Source: Pseudomonadota bacterium (lineage in GTDB: Bacteria > Pseudomonadota > Alphaproteobacteria > UBA11222). Taken from it: a stretch of DNA of 64,000 nucleotides. Below, one piece after another: positions 7,749 through 46,923 of this stretch. Location of the stretch: the NCBI GenBank assembly GCA_049325255.1, contig JBMOMW010000026.1:7646-71645 (forward strand), written 5' to 3'. The first letter of the stretch is position 1. Every line of letters begins with the position of its first letter. The notes beneath the pieces were generated by a model. It saw only the letters and a program-made list of their open reading frames with translations. It did not search any database and was not told the origin of the DNA. The position numbers and the translations under genes are program-made.

Positions 7749-8939
7749 ATGTCGAAAGAGAAGTTTGCGCGCACGAAGCCGCATTGCAACATTGGCACGA
7801 TTGGGCATGTTGACCACGGCAAGACGTCATTGACGGCGGCGATTACGAAGGTTCTGGCCGAGACGGGCGGGGCGACGTATACGGCGTATGACCAGATTGA
7901 CAAGGCGCCGGAAGAAAAGGCGCGTGGGATCACGATATCGACGGCGCATGTTGAATATGAAACGGTGAACCGGCATTACGCGCATGTGGATTGCCCTGGC
8001 CATGCGGACTATGTGAAGAACATGATCACGGGTGCTGCGCAGATGGATGGGGGCATTCTGGTTGTGTCGGCGGCCGATGGCCCGATGCCGCAGACGCGCG
8101 AGCATATTCTTCTGGCGCGTCAGGTTGGGGTGCCTTCGCTTGTGGTATTCATGAACAAGGTGGATCAGGTGGACGATCCGGAACTTCTGGAGCTGGTTGA
8201 GCTGGAGATCCGCGAACTTCTGTCGAGCTATGATTATCCTGGCGATGATATTCCGATCATCAAGGGTTCTGCGCTTGCAGCGCTGGAAGGCAAGAATCCG
8301 GAGATTGGGCATGATGCGATTCTGGAGCTGATGAAGGCTGTTGACAGCTATATTCCGCAGCCGGAGCGTCCGAAGGACCGTCCGTTCCTGATGCCGATTG
8401 AAGACGTGTTTTCGATTTCGGGCCGTGGCACGGTTGTGACGGGCCGTGTGGAACAGGGCGTTGTCAAGGTCGGCGAGGAAGTCGAGATTGTAGGCCTGAA
8501 GCCGACGCAGAAGACGGTTTGCACGGGCGTTGAGATGTTCCGCAAGCTTCTGGATCAGGGCGAGGCGGGCGACAATATCGGCGCGCTGCTGCGGGGCATT
8601 GACCGTGAAGGTGTTGAGCGCGGCCAGGTTCTGGCCAAGCCCGGCTCGATTACGCCGCACACGAATTTCAAGGCGGAAGCCTATATTCTGACGAAGGAAG
8701 AAGGTGGCCGTCACACGCCGTTCTTCAACAATTACCGTCCGCAGTTTTATTTCCGCACGACGGACGTGACGGGTGTTGTGACGCTTCCGGAAGGCACCGA
8801 GATGGTGATGCCGGGCGACAATGTTACGATGGATGTTGAACTGATTGTTGCGATCGCCATGGACGAAGGCCTTCGCTTCGCCATCCGCGAAGGCGGCCGC
8901 ACCGTCGGCGCCGGCGTCGTCGCAAAAATCATTAAATAA
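7749..8939 (+). CDS. tuf: elongation factor Tu
   Basis: 396-aa [19 protein letters not shown] and NKVD motifs. Follows fusA. Confidence 0.95.
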
Positions 8940-37899: not shown

Positions 37900-40800
37900 T
37901 CACGAGCAGCCGCTGGTGGCGCCGCAGGTGTTGCACTTCATGCAGGTGCCATTACGCACCAGTGTGAAATTGCCGCACTCGCCACAGCTTTCTCCCTCAT
38001 ATCCCTTGACCCGCGCTTCCATCAGCAGGCTGGTTTGCGTCGTGCTGCCCCCGCTGCTTACAGATGTGCTCATGGCATAGCTCTCAGTTGTGACAAAGGG
38101 GCCCGTGCCCGTGCACATTTCGCTTAGCAGGCTGGCCGCGACTTCTTCCTGTTCAACAATTGCGGGCCGCTCGGCGCCGCCGGGCAGTACGACAAGACGG
38201 CTGCGCACAAAGCCGGTGCTGGTAACTTTCTGCACCTGCCCGGTAACCTCTTCGATGCCCGATCCCATCGCATCAAAGCGGTACTCGTTGGGTTCCACAT
38301 GCGCCAGATCGCCGCGACCGAGATAAGAGATCGCCAGTTCCCGGAACACATAATCGACAATCGATGTGGCGCTTTTGATCACGTCATTGCCCTGTACCAT
38401 GCCCGCCGGTTCAAAGCGGGTGAAGGTAAAGGCGTCGACAAATTCTTCCAGTGGCACGCCATATTGCAGGCCAATGGAAATGGCGATGGCGTAATTGTTC
38501 ATCAGGCTTCGAAAGGCGGCGCCTTCCTTGTGCATGTCGATGAAGATTTCACCCAGTTTGCCGTCTTCATATTCGCCCGTGCGCAGATAGACCTTGTGTC
38601 CGCCGACGGTTGCCTTTTGCGTATAGCCCTTGCGGCGATGCGGCAGACGGCGGCGCTCAACGTTTTTCTTTTCCGCCTCTAGGGTGCGAATGGCCAGTTG
38701 CTCTGCAACAAGTTGCGCACGCATGGCGGCGGGCGCTTCAATAACGGTTTGCGCCGTTTCCTGGGCGACAGAGGCGTCATTATCCAGAATTTGGGCGTTG
38801 AGCGGCTGGCTCAGTTTGGAGCCGTCACGATACAGCGCGTTGGCCTTGATCCCCAGGCGCCAGGATTTCATATAGGCGCTGGAACATTCCGCAATCGTTG
38901 CGTCATTGGGCATATTGATGGTCTTGGAGATGGCGCCGGAAATAAACGGCTGGCAGGCCGCCATCATTTCGATATGGCTATCCACACTCAGATAGCGCTT
39001 GCCAATGCGCCCGCATGGATTGGCGCAATCAAACACCGGCAGATGCGCGTCTTTAAGACCCGGCGCGCCTTCCAGTGTCATGGTGCCGCAGCAATACAGG
39101 TTTGCGGCATCCACATCGGCCTGGGTGAAACCAATCGCCGTCAGCATGTTGAAATTCATGTCTTCCAGCTGTTCCTGGCTCAGGCCCAGAACAGCGGTGC
39201 AGAAATCCTCGCCCAGCGACCATTTGTTGAAGACGAACTTGATGTCGAACGCAGACGCCAGTCCGGCCTCGATGGTTTCCAGTTGCGCGTCGCCAAACCC
39301 GCGCGCGCGCAGGCTATCGTGATTGACGCCAGGCGCCCCGTTCAGTGTGCCACGGCCCACGGCATAATCGATAATGGCGTCAATTTCGGCTTGCGCATAG
39401 CCCAGCACCTGCAATGCGGGCGGCACGGTCTGGTTGATGATCTTGAAATATCCGCCGCCCGCCAGTTTCTTGAACTTGACCAGGGCGAAATCCGGCTCGA
39501 TCCCGGTGGTGTCGCAATCCATGACCAGGCCGATGGTGCCGGTTGGCGCAATCACGCTGGCCTGCGCATTGCGATAGCCATGCGCCTTGCCCAATATCAC
39601 GGCGCGGTCCCAGGCAACCCGTGCGGCGGCAATCAGCGCCTTATCGGGGCAACTGGCAGCGTCCAGCGGCACAGGCAGGGTCTGCAAACCTTCATAGCCG
39701 TGGGTTTCACCAAGTGCCGCGCGTTGATGATTGCGCATCACCCGTAGCATCGCATCCGCATTTTTCTCATACCCCGGAAAGGCGCCAAGCTCGCGCGCCA
39801 TCAAGGCCGAGGTTTCATAGGAAACGCCCGTCATCAGCGCGGAAATGCCCCCGGCAACGGCGCGCCCCTCAGCGCTGTCATAGCCAAGCCCCATGCCCAT
39901 CAGCAGCCCGCCCAGATTGGCGAAGCCAAGCCCAAGGGTGCGATATTTATAGGACAGTTCGGCGATTTTCTGCGATGGGAACTGCGCCATCATCACGGAA
40001 ATTTCCAGCACGATGGTCCATAGCGATGCCGCGTGTGAGAAGCCCGCCACATCAAAGGCGCCTGCGCCATCCTGGAAACGCATCAGATTGAGCGAGGCCA
40101 GATTGCAGGCGGTATCGTCCAGGAACATATATTCCGAGCATGGATTGGATGCGCGGATCGGCCCGCTTTTGGGGCAGGTATGCCAGTCATTAATGGTGGT
40201 GTGAAACTGCAACCCCGGATCGGCGGACGCCCACGCGGCCTCGCCTATGCGATCCCACAGCTTGCGCGCGGGCAGGGTTTTGGTCACAACGCCATCGGTG
40301 CGCCGGGTCAGCGACCATTCCCCATCTTCTTCAACTGCTTTCAGAAACGCGTCTGTTACCCGTACGGAATTATTGGAGTTTTGCCCCGATACAGTCAGAT
40401 AGGCTTCGGAATCCCAGTCGGTGTCGAAGGTCGGAAAATCCATCCGCTTATGGCCCTGGCGGGCAAACTGAATCGAGCGCTGAATATAATTTTCCGGCAC
40501 CATCATGGCGCGGGCGTTGCGGATTTCCTGACGCAGGGCAGGGTTCTTTTTCGGATCGAAGCATTCATCGCCATCGCTGCTGCAATTGACGCAGGCGCGG
40601 ATGATGGCGTTCAGATGTTTATCGAGCAGCTTGGAGCCGGAAACCAGCGCCGCGACTTTTTGTTCTTCGAGCATTTTCCAGTCGATAAAGGTCTCAATAT
40701 CCGGGTGATCAACATCGACGATCACCATTTTTGCGGCGCGCCGTGTCGTGCCGCCGGATTTGATAGCGCCCGCAGCACGGTCGCCAATACGCAAAAAGCT

Positions 40801-41565
40801 CATCAGGCCGGATGATTTTCCGCCACCCGAAAGCGATTCGTTCTCGCCGCGCAGGGCAGAGAAGTTGGAACCCGTGCCCGAACCATATTTGAACAGGCGC
40901 GCCTCACGCACCCATAAATCCATAATGCCGCCTTCATTCACCAGATCGTCACTGACGCTCTGAATGAAACAGGCGTGGGGTTGCGGGCGCTCATAGGCGC
41001 TGAGAGAACGCTGCACCTCGCCGGTGGTGTGATCCACATAGAAATGGCCTTGCGCCGGTCCATCAATGCCATAGGCCCAATGCAGGCCGGTGTTGAACCA
41101 TTGCGGGCTATTGGGCGCGCACATCTGGCTGGCCAGCATATAGCGATGCTCATCATAAAAGGCGCGCGCATCGTCCTGTCCATCGAAATAGCCGCCCTTC
41201 CAGCCCCAATAGGTCCACGCGCCCGCCAGACGGTCAAATACCTGTGTCGCCTGCTTTTCGGGACCAAAACGCTTGGTCGGGTCGATCCGCTCCAGTGCGG
41301 CGTCGTCTGCGGTGTGGCGCCATAACCAGGCCGGCACATCGGCCTCCTCGATAGGGCGAAGCTCAACAGGAACCCCGGCTTTACGGAAATATTTTTGCGC
41401 CAGAACGTCACAGGCCACCTGGCTCCAACTGGCTGGGACGCGGATATCTTCCAAACGGAATACAATCGACCCGTCGGGATTACGAATCTCGCTATTCGCT
41501 GTACGGAACGCGATGCTATCGTAGGGTGACTTGCCTTCGACCGTGTAGTGACGCTTAACGCGCAT
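37900..41565 (-). CDS. nrdJ: adenosylcobalamin-dependent ribonucleoside-diphosphate reductase (class II, long NrdJ)
   Basis: 1221-aa ORF. RNR barrel motifs and C-terminal CxxC...CxxC zinc-finger tail (CGECGN...CMKCNTC) typical of alphaproteobacterial NrdJ. Confidence 0.9.
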
Positions 41566-41740
41566 ATTATCTGCCCCGACTTACTATCTATGTTTACGTT
41601 GGTCTGGATCGGGTGGTGATGCCGACGAAACAAAAGCTGGAAATTGTCCCCCCGCTGCTTTTGTCTCAATACTACATCTAGTGTCCCACTCCCCAGGGAC
41701 CACCAAGACTAGGGGATAGGAAAAAATGCGCAACAACATT

Positions 41741-41749
41741 TTGTGGATA
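41741..41749 (-). promoter_or_regulatory. consensus DnaA box TTATCCACA (minus strand) in an AT-rich leader about 180 bp upstream of nrdJ. A degenerate second box lies near 41757-41767.
   Basis: Plus strand reads TGTGGATAA. A nearby TTTCCACAAG is a partial match. The region 41700-41900 is markedly AT-rich. Confidence 0.4.
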
Positions 41750-42014
41750 AAAAATGAATTTCCACAAGATAATGGGCTGTGCATAACTTTTACTTTAATT
41801 GCCAATATGAAAAAATATCAAATTAAATCAAACAGTTGAGCATGTAATTGAATGTAAAAACTGATCAGATCGGCGGTGTAAAAATAATTTCTGTCCGGTC
41901 CCCAAAATAATAATGATGCCGCACCGGGCTGGACGCTGGGCACAGCGGGTGTCATATTCGCGTCGAATTACGCTATTATTCGGGAGCTGGATCGTTACTG
42001 ATTGAATCGCAACA

Positions 42015-42130
42015 CCCCCTTCGTCATTGCGAACGAAGTGAAGCAATCTAGGAGTCACACGCGCAAGCCTGCGATTTTGGCCACTGGATTGCCACGCCGC
42101 TTACGCGGCTCGCAATGACGGTGGAGGGGG
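42015..42130 (+). repeat. copy A of a ~116-bp imperfect-palindromic dispersed repeat with terminal inverted repeats (CCCCCTTCGTCATTGCGA ... TCGCAATGACGGTGGAGGGGG)
   Basis: Internal inverted symmetry read directly. A second, inverted copy lies at 44953-45073. Confidence 0.6.
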
Positions 42131-42181
42131 CGGTTGTGATTAAAAGGAATCCCGCTCCTGCTATCACCTGAGAGGAATGTA

Positions 42182-42568
42182 ATGCGCCTGCTAATCAAAC
42201 AGCTTTTTACCTGGTGGGATGGGCAGAGCGCGGGAACGCGGCTGTGGACCTGGCGCAAGGGGGTGCGGGTCGGCGCCGATTCTCAGGGCAACATCTATTA
42301 CCGCGAACGCAAGCGGGACCGCCGCTGGGTGATCTATAACGGCGAGGTGGACGCCTCCCGCATACCGCCGGAATGGCATGGCTGGCTGCATCATACGGTG
42401 GATGAATTGCCCGGCGAATCAACACACAGGCGCAAGAAGTACGAGAAGCCCCATCTGTCGAATCAAACGGGCACGCCAAATGCCTACCGTCCCAGGGGCA
42501 GCATCCTGAAGGGCGCCGGCAACCCAAAAGCGGCGGGCGCCTATGAAGCCTGGAAACCGGAAGCATAA
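42182..42568 (+). CDS. NDUFA12-family (complex I 17.2-kDa subunit-like) protein
   Basis: 128-aa ORF MRLLIKQLFTWWDGQSAGTRLWTWRKG...YYRE, characteristic of bacterial NDUFA12 homologues. Confidence 0.6.
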   Translation: MRLLIKQLFTWWDGQSAGTRLWTWRKGVRVGADSQGNIYYRERKRDRRWVIYNGEVDASRIPPEWHGWLHHTVDELPGESTHRRKKYEKPHLSNQTGTPNAYRPRGSILKGAGNPKAAGAYEAWKPEA

Positions 42569-42570
42569 TC

Positions 42571-43032
42571 ATGGGTGGAAATATTGTTGAAACACTGATC
42601 GGCGCTGCAGTGTTGGCGGTTGCCGGCATCTTTCTGGCCTTTGGCTATTCGACCAGCAGTATCAACAGCGATGGCGGCTTCAAACTTATTGCCAAATTTG
42701 ACCGGGTTGACGGGCTGACGACGGGTAGCGATGTGCGCATGTCGGGTATCAAAATAGGCACCGTGGTCGATCAGCGGCTTGATCCGGCAACCTATCAGGC
42801 CGTGATCGAGATGGATATTGACCGGAAAGTGCAACTGCCCGATGATTCGTCGGTCAAGATCACCAGCGAGGGGTTGCTCGGCGCTACCTATATGTCGCTG
42901 GAAGCGGGCGGCAGCGAAGATTTTCTTGAAAACGGCGGCGAGATTCGCTTTACCCAAGGCTCCATTGATATCATGAGCCTGATTGGCCAGGCCATATTCT
43001 CGGCAACCGGTAAGACCGAAGAGAAAAAATGA
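42571..43032 (+). CDS. MlaD-like MCE-domain protein (outer-membrane lipid asymmetry)
   Basis: 153-aa ORF with N-terminal TM helix and MCE-like domain. Confidence 0.6.
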   Translation: MGGNIVETLIGAAVLAVAGIFLAFGYSTSSINSDGGFKLIAKFDRVDGLTTGSDVRMSGIKIGTVVDQRLDPATYQAVIEMDIDRKVQLPDDSSVKITSEGLLGATYMSLEAGGSEDFLENGGEIRFTQGSIDIMSLIGQAIFSATGKTEEKK

Positions 43033-43808
43033 CTGCATCCGACGCACCGGCTTCCGCCGCCAGCCAGCAATGGCAAGCGGAATCCTATGCGCGCAACGCC
43101 CGGTTTGTGGCCGATCTGGCGCGGCCCGTAGTTGATCTGCTCAACCCCAGGCCCGGAGAGGAGATACTTGATCTCGGCTGCGGGGATGGGGCGCTGAGCC
43201 TCGCCATTGCAGCACGGGGCGCCAGGGTTACGGGCATTGATCCCAGTCCCTCTCTGGTGGCTGCGGCGCATGCGGCCGGGCTTGTTACGGTTAGGGGCGA
43301 TGCGACGGTGATGCCTTTCACCAACTGCTTTGATGCGGTTTTCACCAATGCAGTGTTGCACTGGATATCAAAACCCGATGCGGTGATTGATTCTGTCGCA
43401 AAGGCATTGCGCCCCGGCGGGCGCTTTGTGGGGGAGTTTGGCGGGCATGGCAATGTGGCGGCCATCGTGGTGGCCCTGCGCGCCACGGCCCGCAGACATG
43501 GCCTGGATGAAAGCCAGGTTTCGCCGTGGTTTTACCCGACGCCTGCGGAATATGCGGACAGGCTGACGCACGGTGGATTTCACGTCGACACGATCGAATT
43601 AATACCCCGGCCTACGCCGCTGCCAACCGGCATTGAGGGCTGGCTGGATACGTTCCGGGCGCCATTTTTTCAATCATTACCCAGCGAAAAGCGCGCTTCG
43701 ATTCGTCAGGAAATTATCGGCCTGCTGGCACCGTCCTTGTGTGATTCGCAGGGCAACTGGACGGCGGATTATGTCCGGCTGCGGTTTGCAGCGCATCTGG
43801 CGGCCTAG
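43029..43808 (+). CDS. class I SAM-dependent methyltransferase (Tam-like)
   Basis: 259-aa ORF with SAM motif ILDLGCGDG. Confidence 0.75.
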   Translation: MTASDAPASAASQQWQAESYARNARFVADLARPVVDLLNPRPGEEILDLGCGDGALSLAIAARGARVTGIDPSPSLVAAAHAAGLVTVRGDATVMPFTNCFDAVFTNAVLHWISKPDAVIDSVAKALRPGGRFVGEFGGHGNVAAIVVALRATARRHGLDESQVSPWFYPTPAEYADRLTHGGFHVDTIELIPRPTPLPTGIEGWLDTFRAPFFQSLPSEKRASIRQEIIGLLAPSLCDSQGNWTADYVRLRFAAHLAA

Positions 43809-44330
43809 ATGATGAAAGTGAAATCAGGCATTGTCGTGCTTTGTTTGTTATCCCCTATCGCCGGGTGGGCGCAGGAAATAATTCCGCCATCGGAACCGGC
43901 GGAGACCCTCGAAGTGCCCAGTCTGGAAGAGGAACTTGGCGGCGTTGCGCCATGGTCACAGGTTCCACCGGCGGGCGCACAACCTGCGACCGTTGAAACC
44001 GAAGATGAACGGCGCGCCAAGACCGTGCGTCTGAACGGACTGGACAAGATCACTGGACGGATCATGTCCTTTGATGCGCCGGTGGATGCGCCAACCCTGT
44101 TTGGCGCGTTGCAGATTACAGCCCGCACCTGCCACAAGCGCCCGCCCGAAGAAACGCCCGAAACCAGCGCCTATCTGGAGATCGCCGATTTTGGCGCCGC
44201 AGCGGCCGCCAGCAGCGGCAAGGCCAGGGGACAACCTATATTTTCGGGCTGGATGTTTGCGTCAAGTCCCGCACTTTCGGCGCTGGAACACCCGATTTAC
44301 GATGTCTGGGTGATTGATTGCAGAACATGA
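43809..44330 (+). CDS. secreted DUF2155-like protein
   Basis: 173-aa ORF with signal peptide MMKVKSGIVVLCLLSPIAGWA. This family is commonly adjacent to NDUFA12-like genes in alphaproteobacteria. Confidence 0.45.
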   Translation: MMKVKSGIVVLCLLSPIAGWAQEIIPPSEPAETLEVPSLEEELGGVAPWSQVPPAGAQPATVETEDERRAKTVRLNGLDKITGRIMSFDAPVDAPTLFGALQITARTCHKRPPEETPETSAYLEIADFGAAAAASSGKARGQPIFSGWMFASSPALSALEHPIYDVWVIDCRT

Positions 44331-44947
44331 GCGCCGCTACAGGGATCGGGCATGGCATAAAAATCGCCACTGCTGTTGATGGCCCGGCGCAATAACTGCT
44401 GATAGCGGATGCGCGGAATTTCGACGCCCCCGAAACTGCCCAGATGCGGTGTCAGGAATTGGGTATCCAGCAGCTGAAAGCCGCCCGCGCGCAGGCGGCC
44501 CGCAAGATGCGTCAGGGCGACTTTGCTAGCGTCGCGCACGAGGCTGAACATGCTTTCGCCAAAAAATGCCGCCCCGATTTGCACGCCGTAAACGCCGCCG
44601 ACAAGCTGTTCGTCTATCCAGCATTCAACGCAATGGGCATGGCCCTGTTCGAACAGGGCGGTGTAGAGGCGGATGATCTGCTCGTTGATCCAGCTATCTT
44701 CATGCCCTGGCCGTGGCGCCGCACACGCACGCATGACCTGCTCGAAAGCGGTATCGATGCGCACCACAAAATGGTCCGCGCGTATGGTGCGGGCCAGTCT
44801 GCGCGATACATGAAATCTGTCCAGCGGCAAAATGCCGCGCATTTCCGGGTCAAGCCAGAACAGGTCCGGATCGTCCCGGCTTTGCGCCATGGGAAAATAT
44901 CCGTGCGCATAGGCGCGCAGCAGCAGTTCCGGCGTCAGTTCAGGCAT
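44297..44947 (-). CDS. aat: leucyl/phenylalanyl-tRNA--protein transferase
   Basis: 216-aa ORF with conserved segments GYFPM, WxDEQLVGGVYGVQIG and GESMFS. Confidence 0.85.
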   Translation of the reverse strand: MPELTPELLLRAYAHGYFPMAQSRDDPDLFWLDPEMRGILPLDRFHVSRRLARTIRADHFVVRIDTAFEQVMRACAAPRPGHEDSWINEQIIRLYTALFEQGHAHCVECWIDEQLVGGVYGVQIGAAFFGESMFSLVRDASKVALTHLAGRLRAGGFQLLDTQFLTPHLGSFGGVEIPRIRYQQLLRRAINSSGDFYAMPDPCSGAHVLQSITQTS

Positions 44948-44952
44948 TTTAT

Positions 44953-45073
44953 TCGTTCGTCTTTGCGAGGAGCGAAGCGACGCGGCAATCCAGGGCGCCT
45001 ATTGAGCCCTTTGCGTGTGACTCTGGATCGCCACGCCGCGATGCGGCTCGCGATGACAGCGTTGTGGAAGGGC
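44953..45073 (+). repeat. copy B (inverted orientation) of the ~120-bp palindromic repeat
   Basis: The reverse complement of copy A aligns by eye. CGTCATTGCGAGCCGCGTAAGCGGCGTGGCAATCCAG matches CGTCTTTGCGAGGAGCGAAGCGACGCGGCAATCCAG, and CTTGCGCGTGTGACTC matches CTTTGCGTGTGACTC. Confidence 0.55.
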
Positions 45074-45113
45074 AACCCAACCTACCTATACCCAACTCTC
45101 ACACATGATCTTC

Positions 45114-46451
45114 TCAGCTGTTAGCGAGACGGGTCTCAAGCCAGTGAATATCATATTCGCCATTTATAAAATCCGGCTCCTCCAGCAGGGCGCGGTGCAA
45201 ATCCAGTGTCGTTTCGACGCCATCAATGACAAACTCGTCCAGCGCGCGGCCCAGGCGCATCAGGCATTCATGCCGGTCGCGGCCATGCACGATCAGCTTG
45301 CCGATCATGCTGTCATAATAAGGCGGTATCCGATAGCCCGCATAGGCGGCGGAATCGACGCGCACGCCAAGTCCACCAGGCACATGGAAATTCTTTATGG
45401 CGCCCGGGCTGGGGACAAAGGTTCTGGGGTGTTCGGCATTGATGCGGCATTCAATGGCGTGGCCACGCAGAACAACATCTTCCTGTTTGAAACTAAGCGG
45501 CATTCCGCTGGCGACACGAATTTGCTCGCGCACCAGATCGATGCCGGTCACCATCTCGGTCACGGGGTGTTCAACCTGTAGACGGGTGTTCATTTCGATA
45601 AAATAAAATGCGCCGTTCTCGTACAGAAATTCAATCGTGCCTGCGCCCAGATAGCCAATTTTCTCCATGGCCTTTGTCACGATGCGGCCGATTTCACGGC
45701 GTGCGGCGTCGTTCAGTGCAGGCGATGGCGACTCTTCGAGAACTTTTTGATGCCGCCGTTGCAGCGAGCAATCACGTTCGCCCAGATGCACCACATTGCC
45801 GTGCGAATCCGCCATGATCTGAATTTCAATATGGCGTGGATGGCCCAGATATTTTTCCAGATACATGGCGTCATCGCCAAAGGCTGCACGCGCCTCGTTA
45901 CGCGCAGTGGCCAGCGCCTCCGCCAGCCTGCCTGCATCTGTGGCCACCTTCATGCCGCGCCCGCCGCCACCGGCGGCCGCCTTACATAGAACCGGATAGC
46001 CGATCTTGGCGGCAATTTCCGCTGCATCGCTATCGTTTACAGCGCCGGGGGAGCCGGGCACCACCGGAATTCCGGCGGCAATCATGGCCTGCTTGGCGGC
46101 GATCTTGTCGCCCATGGTGCGAATATGTTCCGTACGCGGCCCCACAAACGTAATCTTATGCGCCGCCAGTATTTCGGCAAAATTCGCATTCTCGGAAAGA
46201 AAGCCATAGCCGGGATGCACGGCGTCCGCGCCGGTAATTTCACACGCGGTAACGATGGCTGGAATATTGAGATAGGACTTTGCAGCGGAGGGTGGACCAA
46301 TGCACACGCTTTCATCCGCCAGCCGCACATGCATGGCCTCCGAATCCGCCGTGGAGTGCACAGCGACCGTCGCAATCCCCATCTCCTTGCAGGCACGATG
46401 GATACGCAATGCTATTTCGCCGCGATTGGCGATCAGTAATTTTTTAATCAT
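45114..46451 (-). CDS. accC: acetyl-CoA carboxylase biotin carboxylase subunit
   Basis: ORF 45114..46574. The conserved N-terminus [16 protein letters not shown] starts at 46451. ATP-grasp motifs present. Confidence 0.93.
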
Positions 46452-46482
46452 GTGCCGGCCCAAACTATTTTTAGCCTGCGTG

Positions 46483-46923
46483 TCATTCAATGATAGCCAG
46501 GGGTTCGCCGAATTCCACCGGCTGTCCATCCTTGACAAGAATCCGCGCCACCTTGCCGGATTTCGGCGCGGCAATCGGGTTCATGGTTTTCATGGCCTCG
46601 ACAATGAACAGCGTCTGGCCGGTTTCCACTGCATCGCCTACCGCAATGAAGGGGGTGGCCCCCGGTTCCGGCGCCAGATAGACCGTGCCAACCATGGGTG
46701 ATGTGACAGCGCCGGGATGCGCGCCCAGGCTTTCCGCAATTACAGGCTGGGCTGCATGGGATATCGCCGGTGCGGCATACTGTACCGGCGCTGCGGCGCC
46801 GGGCTGACGCGCCACGCGCACCCGCAATCCTTCATGCTCGATTTCAATTTCGGTCAGTCTGGTCTCATCAAGAAGCTCCGCAAGCGCGCGGATCATGTCC
46901 CGGTCGATTTTATTTTTGTTCAT
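46483..46923 (-). CDS. accB: acetyl-CoA carboxylase biotin carboxyl carrier protein
   Basis: ORF 46483..46998. The likely start MNKNKIDRD is at 46923. Biotinyl-lysine motif EAMKTMN. Confidence 0.9.

Follow-up and report, generated by a model that had tools for sequence, protein, structure and literature searches.

Dimers of CGTC/TGTC-tagged REP-type modules in an alphaproteobacterial locus and their probable relation to the motifs of Ssn GIY-YIG nucleases

The CGTC-tagged REP superfamily comprises the families CGTC-1 to CGTC-4 and includes dRS3 of Neisseria and RPE-4 and RPE-6 of Rickettsia (Di Nocera, De Gregorio & Rocco 2013, BMC Genomics 14:522; PMC3733652). In that survey G-T pairing was noted in the repeats, and no RAYT or other transposase was found flanked by them. 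The prototype, CGTC-1, is the NTS/dRS3 of Neisseria (PMC3733652, PMC11893778), a hairpin that is bound and cut as single-stranded DNA by the GIY-YIG nuclease SsnA; such hairpins flank ssn genes (Chenal et al. 2025, Nat Commun 16:2388; PMC11893778). Cleavage of ssDNA, and not of dsDNA or RNA, a few nucleotides 5' of the motif has been shown for the Neisseria and Wolbachia pairs only; SsnA does not bind RNA, and NTS-gene-NTS arrangements in Neisseria affect the integration of transforming DNA (PMC11893778).

We looked for the place of two repeats, elements A and B, among these systems. Both lie in the window, that is, the whole 64-kb stretch of DNA analyzed here, which holds two copies, A and B only. 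The original prediction had taken them for related, strictly intergenic, imperfect palindromes, and this was borne out. Local alignment of A with B scored 45 on the same strand and 49 on the reverse complement (shuffles 15.4 +/- 2.3, maximum 27), and nhmmer matched them with E = 3.5e-5 and 7.5e-4, a likeness far beyond chance. Arm-to-arm identity was about 80-90% over 36-79 nt, with indels, above the figure of about 60% below which the relation was to be given up. The longest near-exact common run is 17 nt and there is no long exact identity; because of the indels, a finder of exact and near-exact repeats run over the whole window did not pick up the pair. The parts of the two elements are as follows.

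42015-42130: element A, a two-module tagged-hairpin dimer with an outer CCCCC...GGGGG clamp (arms 42015-42019 and 42126-42130), as read from sequence and folds; it lies between the divergent nrdJ (- strand) and NDUFA12-like gene (+ strand)
42022-42050, + strand: module A-left, with CGTC tag (42022-42025), ATTGC..GCAAT stem and short 26-mer-type core GTCATTGCGAACGAAGTGAAGCAATC
42051-42083: spacer of A, holding GAGTCACACGC, a motif that recurs in the spacer of B and in that of a dimer in an alphaproteobacterial MAG, L141
42084-42120, - strand: module A-right, CGTC-ATTGC-GA-GCCGC-GTAA-GCGGC-GTG-GCAAT-CCAG (tag 42117-42120); its stem is bipartite and its loop GNRA-like
44950-45100: element B as inserted unit (151 bp), in the gap that separates the stop of accC from the start of aat; the two genes are on the - strand
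44958-44993, + strand: module B-left, CGTC-TTTGC-GAG-GAGCGAAGCGAC-GCG-GCAAT-CCAG (tag 44958-44961)
44994-45022: spacer of B, holding GCGTGTGACTC, the reverse complement of the A-spacer motif
45023-45058, - strand: module B-right, TGTC-ATCGC-GA-GCCGC-ATC-GCGGC-GTG-GCGAT-CCAG (TGTC tag 45055-45058)
45059-45100: tail of B, 42 nt, part of the 151-bp indel and outside the hairpin

The view that B is approximately the reverse complement of A had mixed support and no clear decision: the spacer motif stands in opposite orientation in the two elements, while the arm types correspond in the same orientation. Likewise, the extent first given to B, 44953-45073, contains its core (44958-45058) but is narrower than the inserted unit. 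Folding supported the palindromes. Element A forms as RNA a single long hairpin (-65.3 kcal/mol, z = -6.3) and is also stable as ssDNA (-34.5 kcal/mol, z = -4.3), while the fold of B is more degenerate (z = -0.8 to -2.8).

Stable RNA folds in both elements raise the question whether A and B are selected cis-acting RNA hairpins (an mRNA stabilizer, a processing site or an attenuator) on the accBC-aat and NDUFA12-like operon. B sits inside the co-directional accC-aat unit, where it would be transcribed, and replaces the 16-nt junction before the aat start codon; moreover, REPs elsewhere act in this way, and PMC3733652 notes G-T pairing. Nevertheless, we consider this unlikely. In Rfam, at gathering thresholds and E <= 10, A had no match and B chance-level matches only, and no terminator-like site, a GC hairpin followed by a U-tract, was found at A or B. 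Close strains live without B, and A is placed among divergent promoters. Across phyla, members of the family stand in every orientation and context, and RNA is not a ligand of SsnA (PMC11893778). A cis-acting RNA role of A and B would be at best a local side effect.

We read A and B instead as non-coding dimers of CGTC/TGTC-tagged REP-type modules. Each consists of two modules of 29-37 nt whose tags face outward. From its unpaired [C/T]GTC tag, a module runs through a lower stem of ATTGC/GCAAT (one arm has ATCGC/GCGAT), then an internal loop and a mini-hairpin that covaries, to a CCA(G) tail; in numbers, a stem of 5 bp, a GA/GNG internal loop, an upper stem of 4-5 bp and a loop of 3-4 nt, or alternatively the short 26-mer core. 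The pattern of tag, stem and tail is present in 4/4 modules, the AT...AT start of the stem in three (B-left has TT, its first stem pair being mutated from A to T) and the CCA tail in three, A-left carrying a mutated CTA that is CCA in strain L124. The downstream logo of the whole family gives C 0.75, A 0.57 and G 0.42. B-left is of the commonest 32-mer type, whose upper stem has tandem G.A/A.G, and B-right differs from A-right by two compensatory changes in the lower stem, which is ATCGC/GCGAT in place of ATTGC/GCAAT. The upper stem covaries within the family: 22 double-change cells were counted against 3.7 in shuffles (0/500). As ssDNA, A-right folds into exactly the module hairpin (-9.9 kcal/mol, z = -2.5) and B-right reaches -11.2 kcal/mol (z = -2.1), while A-left and B-left, two of the four modules, do not fold on their own with nearest-neighbor DNA parameters.

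These features place A and B beside the described CGTC-tagged REPs, with which they share the unpaired CGTC/TGTC end tag (variants TGTC/CCTC), A-T and T-A as first pairs, the ~CCA tail and the arrangement as mostly inverted dimers, often heterodimers, with spacers of 20-100 nt. Both are intergenic, mainly alphaproteobacterial yet present in several phyla, and lack an adjacent transposase. In the described families the stem is a plain one of 8-9 bp, closed by a 4-5-nt loop, whereas the modules of A and B have a bipartite stem or its tandem G.A version, so the simple stem that defines those families is not found in them. Judged by the text and supplements of the 2013 survey (PMC3733652), the ATTGC subtype is likely an undescribed fifth CGTC family; its peptide footprints VIASEAKQS, SLRGAKRR and LAMT are absent from both, and a literature search by repeat DNA strings and peptide footprints returned primers and noise only. 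As a side observation, CGTC-tagged repeats in many genomes yield many spurious "hypothetical proteins" (SLRGAKRRSN..., ...LAMT, GLLRFARNDG).

The family is huge. Near-identical 33-nt modules occur in at least 7 phyla; the exact A-right variant is found in at least 119 genome stretches from at least 7 phyla, the A-left 26-mer has an identical copy on the Nostoc punctiforme plasmid pNPUN03, and MAG CAVVAX01 carries modules in at least 9 stretches. Modules were also present on at least 120 IMG/VR contigs, where the canonical A-left variant GTCATTGCGAGCGAAGCGAAGCAATC is the most frequent; among curated phage genomes, two Helicobacter canis prophage records only carry the module, so that "phage-borne" should not be overstated. 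The unit is the single oriented module, which is also found alone and in same-strand tandem arrays with spacers of ~11 nt. When two modules form a close inverted pair, the tags point outward in 25 of 27 cases in viral contigs (inward in 2) and in 54 of 59 in genomes (inward in 5), and A and B each follow this tags-outward plan, as heterodimers.

We asked whether the likeness to NTS extends to the nuclease. The ends of A and B (CGTCATT...AATCCAG) resemble those of NTS (CGTCATTCCCGCGMAVGCGGGAATCYRG), and both are hairpins with a 5' flank that gives orientation. As in the NTS/Ssn system, the ATTGC module type reaches hundreds of copies in some genomes and flanks a small single-domain GIY-YIG (cd10448-like) gene, tags outward. 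The core sequence and the stem architecture differ, and the published SRM search sequence HGTCWYN(0-2)YYVSBRHN(0-5)WNVSBRGN(0-2)RNCYNB (PMC11893778) matched 0/4 of our modules and no canonical ATTGC variant, while the NTS control matched. We replicated the flanking on six plasmid or chromosome ssn genes: all six products gave Pfam GIY-YIG, and tagged hairpins stood on both sides in 5/6 loci. At the S. meliloti ssn locus, no clear tagged hairpins were seen. Among 80 metagenomic ssn loci, modules of the ATTGCGA type abut the gene in 6 and stand on both sides in 5 of these 6. This flanking, drawn mostly from metagenomic contigs of unknown organisms, was concentrated in the GGSR-type Ssn of the discovery set (5/7 against 1/73 of the other ssn genes, hypergeometric p about 5e-6). 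For validation, K[G]GSR Ssn genes were chosen by protein alone, and ATTGC or ATCGC modules flanked 5/5. The association of ATTGC modules is specific to an Ssn subclade with the motif REKQ-IK[G/A]GSR, as opposed to the K-K/G-W-x-R motif of the published Ssn. In these cassettes of other genomes, modules of the ATTGC type lie on both sides of a GIY-YIG gene of ~95 aa, again with tags outward. Among ssn loci the lower stem covaries (ATTCC, ATTCT, ATCCT, ACCCT, ATTGC and others), and a module of the ATCGC type, as B-right, also adjoins the ssn gene in a further locus, L341, and is part of the L141 dimer, whose arm types and spacer motif are those of A and B, in favor of the dimer as a unit.

We also searched for a nuclease gene near the modules. 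With six Ssn proteins, tblastn found no ssn gene either in the window or in L124-L129, related loci of 12 kb, and a GIY-YIG pattern applied to the ORFs of about 250 module-centered loci gave no Ssn-like gene, as expected of a low-copy gene. Two ORFs, in loci L088 and L194, matched a looser GIY-YIG pattern and neither is a small single-domain gene of the Ssn type. In viral contigs, a search with the consensus Ssn gave no relatives, and the DNA pattern module, 345-406 nt, inverted module returned dimer arrays and no ssn cassettes. Against plasmids, tblastn with Ssn of the KGGSR type recovered other Ssn subclades only.

The logic of the modules is also that of REPINs, mobilized by a single-copy Y1/HUH REP-associated tyrosine transposase, or RAYT (Bertels & Rainey 2011; Nunvar 2010; Ton-Hoang 2012): an oriented intergenic hairpin with an unpaired 5' tetranucleotide, an inverted doublet as replicating unit, no target-site duplication, and a single-copy enzyme gene flanked by repeats. 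That A and B are REPINs in this sense is nonetheless quite improbable. The tag is CGTC/TGTC and not GTAG (GT[AG]G), and REPIN families are lineage-specific and vertically inherited, whereas the ATTGC module is near-identical across phyla. In agreement with the lack of RAYT or other transposase genes flanked by CGTC repeats (PMC3733652), clustering of the ORFs up to 400-600 nt away from 400+ modules brought up no transposase-like family that recurs; in viral contigs the ORFs beside modules were phage structural genes only, and in genomes nothing was recurrent. The gene flanked by the ATTGC type is a GIY-YIG nuclease gene, against a Y1/HUH transposase gene in REPIN-RAYT.

We compared the site of B with related strains. 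Four contigs of strains ~97% identical at the DNA level and two relatives at 88-89% lack it, with clean junctions. At the empty site of L124-L129 there is a 16-nt gap, of which B replaces 1 nt (CATGTGT-T-AAATGCC); the BLAST breakpoints are 44949/45101 in the window and 5999/5997 in L124. No target-site duplication was found in this comparison, and the insert reaches 8 and 42 nt beyond the tags and inverted repeats. B is thus a recent, strain-specific 151-bp insertion without target-site duplication. Looking for the donor of its spacer and tail among all loci compared, we found only a 21-nt spacer match, in L141, and none for the tail. Element A is present in the ~97%-identical strains L124 and L125 with 2 substitutions and absent in L128 and L129, whose spacer is about 125-155 nt shorter.

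The original prediction had seen here a REP- or MITE-like family, of which the REP half holds, given the CGTC/TGTC-tagged dimers and the size of the family. A classical MITE, derived by deletion from a DDE-transposase IS and moved by cut-and-paste through its terminal inverted repeats, would agree with the size (116-151 bp), the terminal inverted repeats, the intergenic position and the presence/absence polymorphism. It is very improbable, as the junctions of B show no target-site duplication, the inverted repeats do not bound the insertion, modules commonly occur singly or in same-strand tandem arrays spaced by ~11 nt, and no related full-length IS was found near modules.

That A and B, as an inverted pair, cause the five genes between them to invert or be exchanged, as two related elements flanking this block and the influence of Neisseria NTS-gene-NTS arrangements on transforming DNA (PMC11893778) could suggest, is hardly credible, since gene order and orientation are the same in six related contigs with 2, 1 or 0 elements, the longest near-exact run between A and B is 17 nt and B arrived recently. 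With the order unchanged in all relatives and B a newcomer, the bracketing looks incidental, and in practice the five genes are neither an invertible unit nor a mobile one.

Taken together, A and B are probably best understood as non-coding dimers of CGTC/TGTC-tagged REP-type modules of the ATTGC subtype, related to the motifs of Ssn. Considering that tags face outward in the ssn cassettes as in A and B, the two elements look like gene-less, non-autonomous versions of a module-ssn-module cassette. By analogy with SsnA and NTS of N. meningitidis, a cognate Ssn encoded elsewhere in the genome would bind the modules when single-stranded, a state that may arise in replication, transformation or conjugation, and would nick a few nucleotides 5' of the tag; such nicking may underlie how the dimers spread and whatever influence they have on the recombination of incoming DNA. 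Effects on the expression of accC-aat or of the NDUFA12-like gene are possibly side effects of a stable hairpin and not the reason for the elements. A simple cut at the tag does not account for the 8- and 42-nt overshoot of B, and a two-cut single-strand excision as in IS200/IS605 would fail, as each strand of a dimer has one correctly oriented module. To our knowledge, transposition activity has been shown for no Ssn.

The tie between the ATTGC subtype and an Ssn subclade extends the 2025 discovery of Ssn to a motif class outside the published search pattern and predicts an ssDNA-nuclease specificity that would be new and of interest for tools. In addition, B provides, within a population of ~97% ANI, a clean pair of filled and empty sites on which to study whether such elements are mobile and by what means. 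A bolder reading, which we regard as doubtful at present, is that Ssn and its hairpins are together a mobile system that spreads horizontally by means of an ssDNA-specific GIY-YIG nickase, with B as a live example of dimers that are still moving. It would draw on the entry of B, as two modules, spacer and tail, into the accC-aat junction, on the module-ssn-module cassettes and on the likeness of the 33-nt modules across at least 7 phyla. If true, this system would be a counterpart of RAYT-REPIN in mechanism with a different enzyme fold, and it would answer the question left in 2013 of what mobilizes the CGTC repeats.

The sequence of both regions agrees with the original prediction of two hairpin repeats, A and B, around a five-gene block, arranged as follows.

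Elements A and B (from the sequence) and neighboring genes (from the gene map)
37900-41565, minus strand: nrdJ
42015-42130: element A, between nrdJ (minus) and the NDUFA12-like gene (plus)
After element A, all plus strand: NDUFA12-like, MlaD-like, methyltransferase and DUF2155 genes
44297-44947, minus strand: aat
44953-45073, as first given: element B, between aat (minus) and accC (minus)
45114-46574, minus strand: accC

Considering gene order and strands, A lies in a divergent promoter region and B between the accC stop and the aat start, both genes being on the same strand. A and B are a real, non-chance repeat pair: their kinship, already proposed, was confirmed by local alignment scores of 45 (same strand) and 49 (reverse complement) against 15.4 +/- 2.3 in shuffles (maximum 27), and by nhmmer (E = 3.5e-5 and 7.5e-4), while no third copy was found in the 64-kb window. 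The description of B as the reverse complement of A holds for the spacer motif GAGTCACACGC, which is in opposite orientation, and fails for the arm types, which share the same orientation; because the two match in contrary ways, the claim as such is not decidable. Element A folds as a single long hairpin (RNA, -65.3 kcal/mol, z = -6.3; ssDNA, -34.5, z = -4.3), and the fold of B is more degenerate. Two side observations concern the neighboring genes. Upstream of nrdJ (minus strand), some 120 nt (window ~41660-41790) hardly differ between the window and relatives with 88-89% aat identity, in contrast to the much less conserved sequence around them; this stretch contains the palindrome-like boxes CCACAAAATGTTGTTGCG and GGGACACTAGATGTAGT, which we take to resemble NrdR boxes, and Rfam reported no cobalamin riboswitch there. 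Moreover, the longest accC ORF (486 aa) begins with TTG and overlaps accB; annotated proteins in relatives have 445-471 aa, so that translation probably begins further downstream.

Both elements are dimers, made up of a left and a right module; the modules are oriented, tagged hairpins with the tags outward. A module consists of an unpaired [C/T]GTC tag, a lower stem, an internal loop in which GA(G) faces G-N-G/A, a small upper hairpin and a CCA(G) tail. The lower stem is ATTGC...GCAAT, from which B-right differs by a compensatory double change (ATCGC...GCGAT). Alone as ssDNA, A-right and B-right take exactly this shape (-9.9 and -11.2 kcal/mol, respectively). A-left is of a short 26-mer type, and B-left of the common 32-mer type, with tandem G.A/A.G in the upper stem and a mutated first stem pair. 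Covariation of the upper stem is evident across 39 distinct 32-mers, with 22 double-change cells versus 3.7 in shuffles (0 of 500 shuffles reaching 22), a test that bears on the upper stem only, since the search pattern held the lower stem constant.

Rfam returned no family for A and B. The label "REP-like" proved correct, as CGTC-tagged REPs have an unpaired CGTC/TGTC tag, a stem beginning with AT and a CCA tail, occur predominantly as inverted dimers, mainly in alphaproteobacteria yet in several phyla, and lack a dedicated transposase (Di Nocera et al. 2013, PMC3733652); whether they still form was left open in that study. The modules share all these features except the simple 8-9-bp stem. 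A and B therefore belong to a known kind, the CGTC-tagged REPs or Ssn-related motifs (SRMs). Peptide footprints of the ATTGC subtype are absent from that paper and its supplements, Figure 2 aside, and the published SRM search pattern matches the Neisseria target hairpin (NTS) and none of the four modules of A and B; with the same reservation for Figure 2, the subtype is outside published descriptions and search pattern.

The closest aat homologues are from uncultured alphaproteobacteria. The accC-aat gap is 166 nt in the window versus 16 nt in four contigs whose aat is 99% identical (L124-L127), and also 16 nt in two relatives with 88-89% aat identity (L128, L129). Comparison with L124, the one of the four compared at the DNA level (96.7-97.5% identity), showed that B is a clean recent insertion: BLAST breakpoints place it at 44950-45100 (151 bp, 1 nt replaced), with no target-site duplication against the empty site, so that B is not "MITE-like". 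Beyond the tags, the inserted segment continues for 8 nt at one end and 42 nt at the other, which a simple cut at the tags does not explain. Close strains carry element A with two substitutions. The 88-89% relatives lack it, and their spacer has diverged too far for junctions to be defined. At the equivalent position, L128 (~8775-8800) carries GGCAATGACCGG, perhaps what is left of a module end, so that loss is an alternative to gain of A. As gene order is identical in every contig compared, there is no sign of the suggested inversion of the block. In an unrelated alphaproteobacterial MAG (L141), a dimer repeats both arm types and the spacer motif, indicating that dimer and spacer propagate as one unit. 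Local RNA effects are possible considering that B replaced the 16-nt junction preceding the aat start codon, but no resemblance to an intrinsic terminator was seen in A or B, and B is missing in close strains.

Beyond these strains, the family is very large. BLAST and reading of the sequences revealed the A/B architecture in Novosphingobium, Halomonas and Nostoc plasmids, and further plasmid BLAST matches, only as long as an arm (21-32% of the query), came from Methylocystis, Methylosinus and Fischerella. The exact 33-nt variant of A-right and B-right occurs in at least 119 stretches of representative genomes, the matches listed including Nitrospina, Rhodospirillales, Acetobacteraceae, Sphingomonas, Burkholderiaceae, Gammaproteobacteria, Helicobacter, Dysgonomonadaceae, Oscillospiraceae/Clostridiales, Melainabacteria and a spirochaete. 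In viral contigs, the pattern GTCATTGCGA-N10-16-GCAATC was found in at least 120 stretches, GTCATTGCGAGCGAAGCGAAGCAATC being the commonest variant among the matches listed. Modules occur singly, as tags-outward dimers (25 versus 2 and 54 versus 5 of the opposite orientation, in two sets) or as same-strand tandem arrays with ~11-nt spacers. In IMG/VR contigs, several intergenic gaps between phage-like genes contain such arrays, each with 3-5 modules set ~11 nt (or 24 nt) apart, and the upper-stem sequence varies from unit to unit.

Tandem module arrays in IMG/VR contigs
L050: 2670-2856, 4984-5103, 11850-11965, 12666-12781
L014: 11383-11520

In L256 (3000-3500) and L258 (4360-4860), mosaic clusters were seen in which an unrelated palindrome, CATCCTTCGAGGCTCGCTGCGCTCGC...CAGGATGAGGGG, is repeated in alternation with ATTGC-type dimers, an arrangement like that of enterobacterial BIMEs.

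The small GIY-YIG protein SsnA binds and cuts the CGTC-1 hairpin of Neisseria (NTS, CGTCATTCCCGCGMAVGCGGGAATCYRG) as ssDNA only, SRM hairpins flank ssn genes across phyla, and the Ssn system modulates transformation (Chenal et al. 2025, PMC11893778). A search with a consensus Ssn identified 33 plasmid or chromosome records with GIY-YIG genes; the domain was recovered by Pfam in 6/6 ssn genes examined, five of which are flanked by inverted tagged hairpins, with none clear at the S. meliloti locus. Planktothrix agardhii plasmid p1 (17647-20313) carries an ssn gene with flanking TGTC-tagged hairpins in a defence island, between a type IIL restriction-modification MmeI gene and DISARM drmA. On Azospirillum lipoferum plasmid AZO_p3, ssn has CGTC-1 dimers on both sides and lies between sufB and sufC, which looks like a mobile cassette inserted into a conserved operon.

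The discovery set comprised 80 ssn loci from a metagenome scan with the alignment of Chenal et al. ATTGCGA-type modules abut the gene in six, on both sides with tags outward in L320, L322, L323, L336 and L337, and on one side in L328. Five of the six fall among the seven Ssn with REKQ-[IL]-KGGSR, versus 1/73 of the other Ssn (hypergeometric p ~5e-6), and the remaining two KGGSR loci carry degenerate forms of the module. A protein search with KGGSR Ssn gave more than 7,900 homologues, the best 120 including 59 with GGSR and 50 with AGSR. In a validation set chosen on protein and contig size alone (P0160, P0165, P0190, P0232, P0237), all five genes were flanked within 260 nt by modules, of the ATCGC type at P0165 and of the ATTGC type at the others. 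Therefore, the ATTGC module is the motif that flanks the genes of one distinct subclade of Ssn, and A and B are arranged like a module-ssn-module cassette minus the gene.

No ssn gene was found in the window or related loci. Binding and cleavage of these modules by Ssn, and any Ssn role in copying the dimers, would be an extrapolation from the Neisseria work. Excision of the IS200/IS605 kind, in which one strand is cut twice, does not match this layout, as each dimer strand has one correctly oriented module only. With low confidence, we propose that dimers could be copied via nick-initiated synthesis through a self-folding ssDNA intermediate. The subtype of A and B comes with a newly delineated nuclease subclade, its putative cognate.
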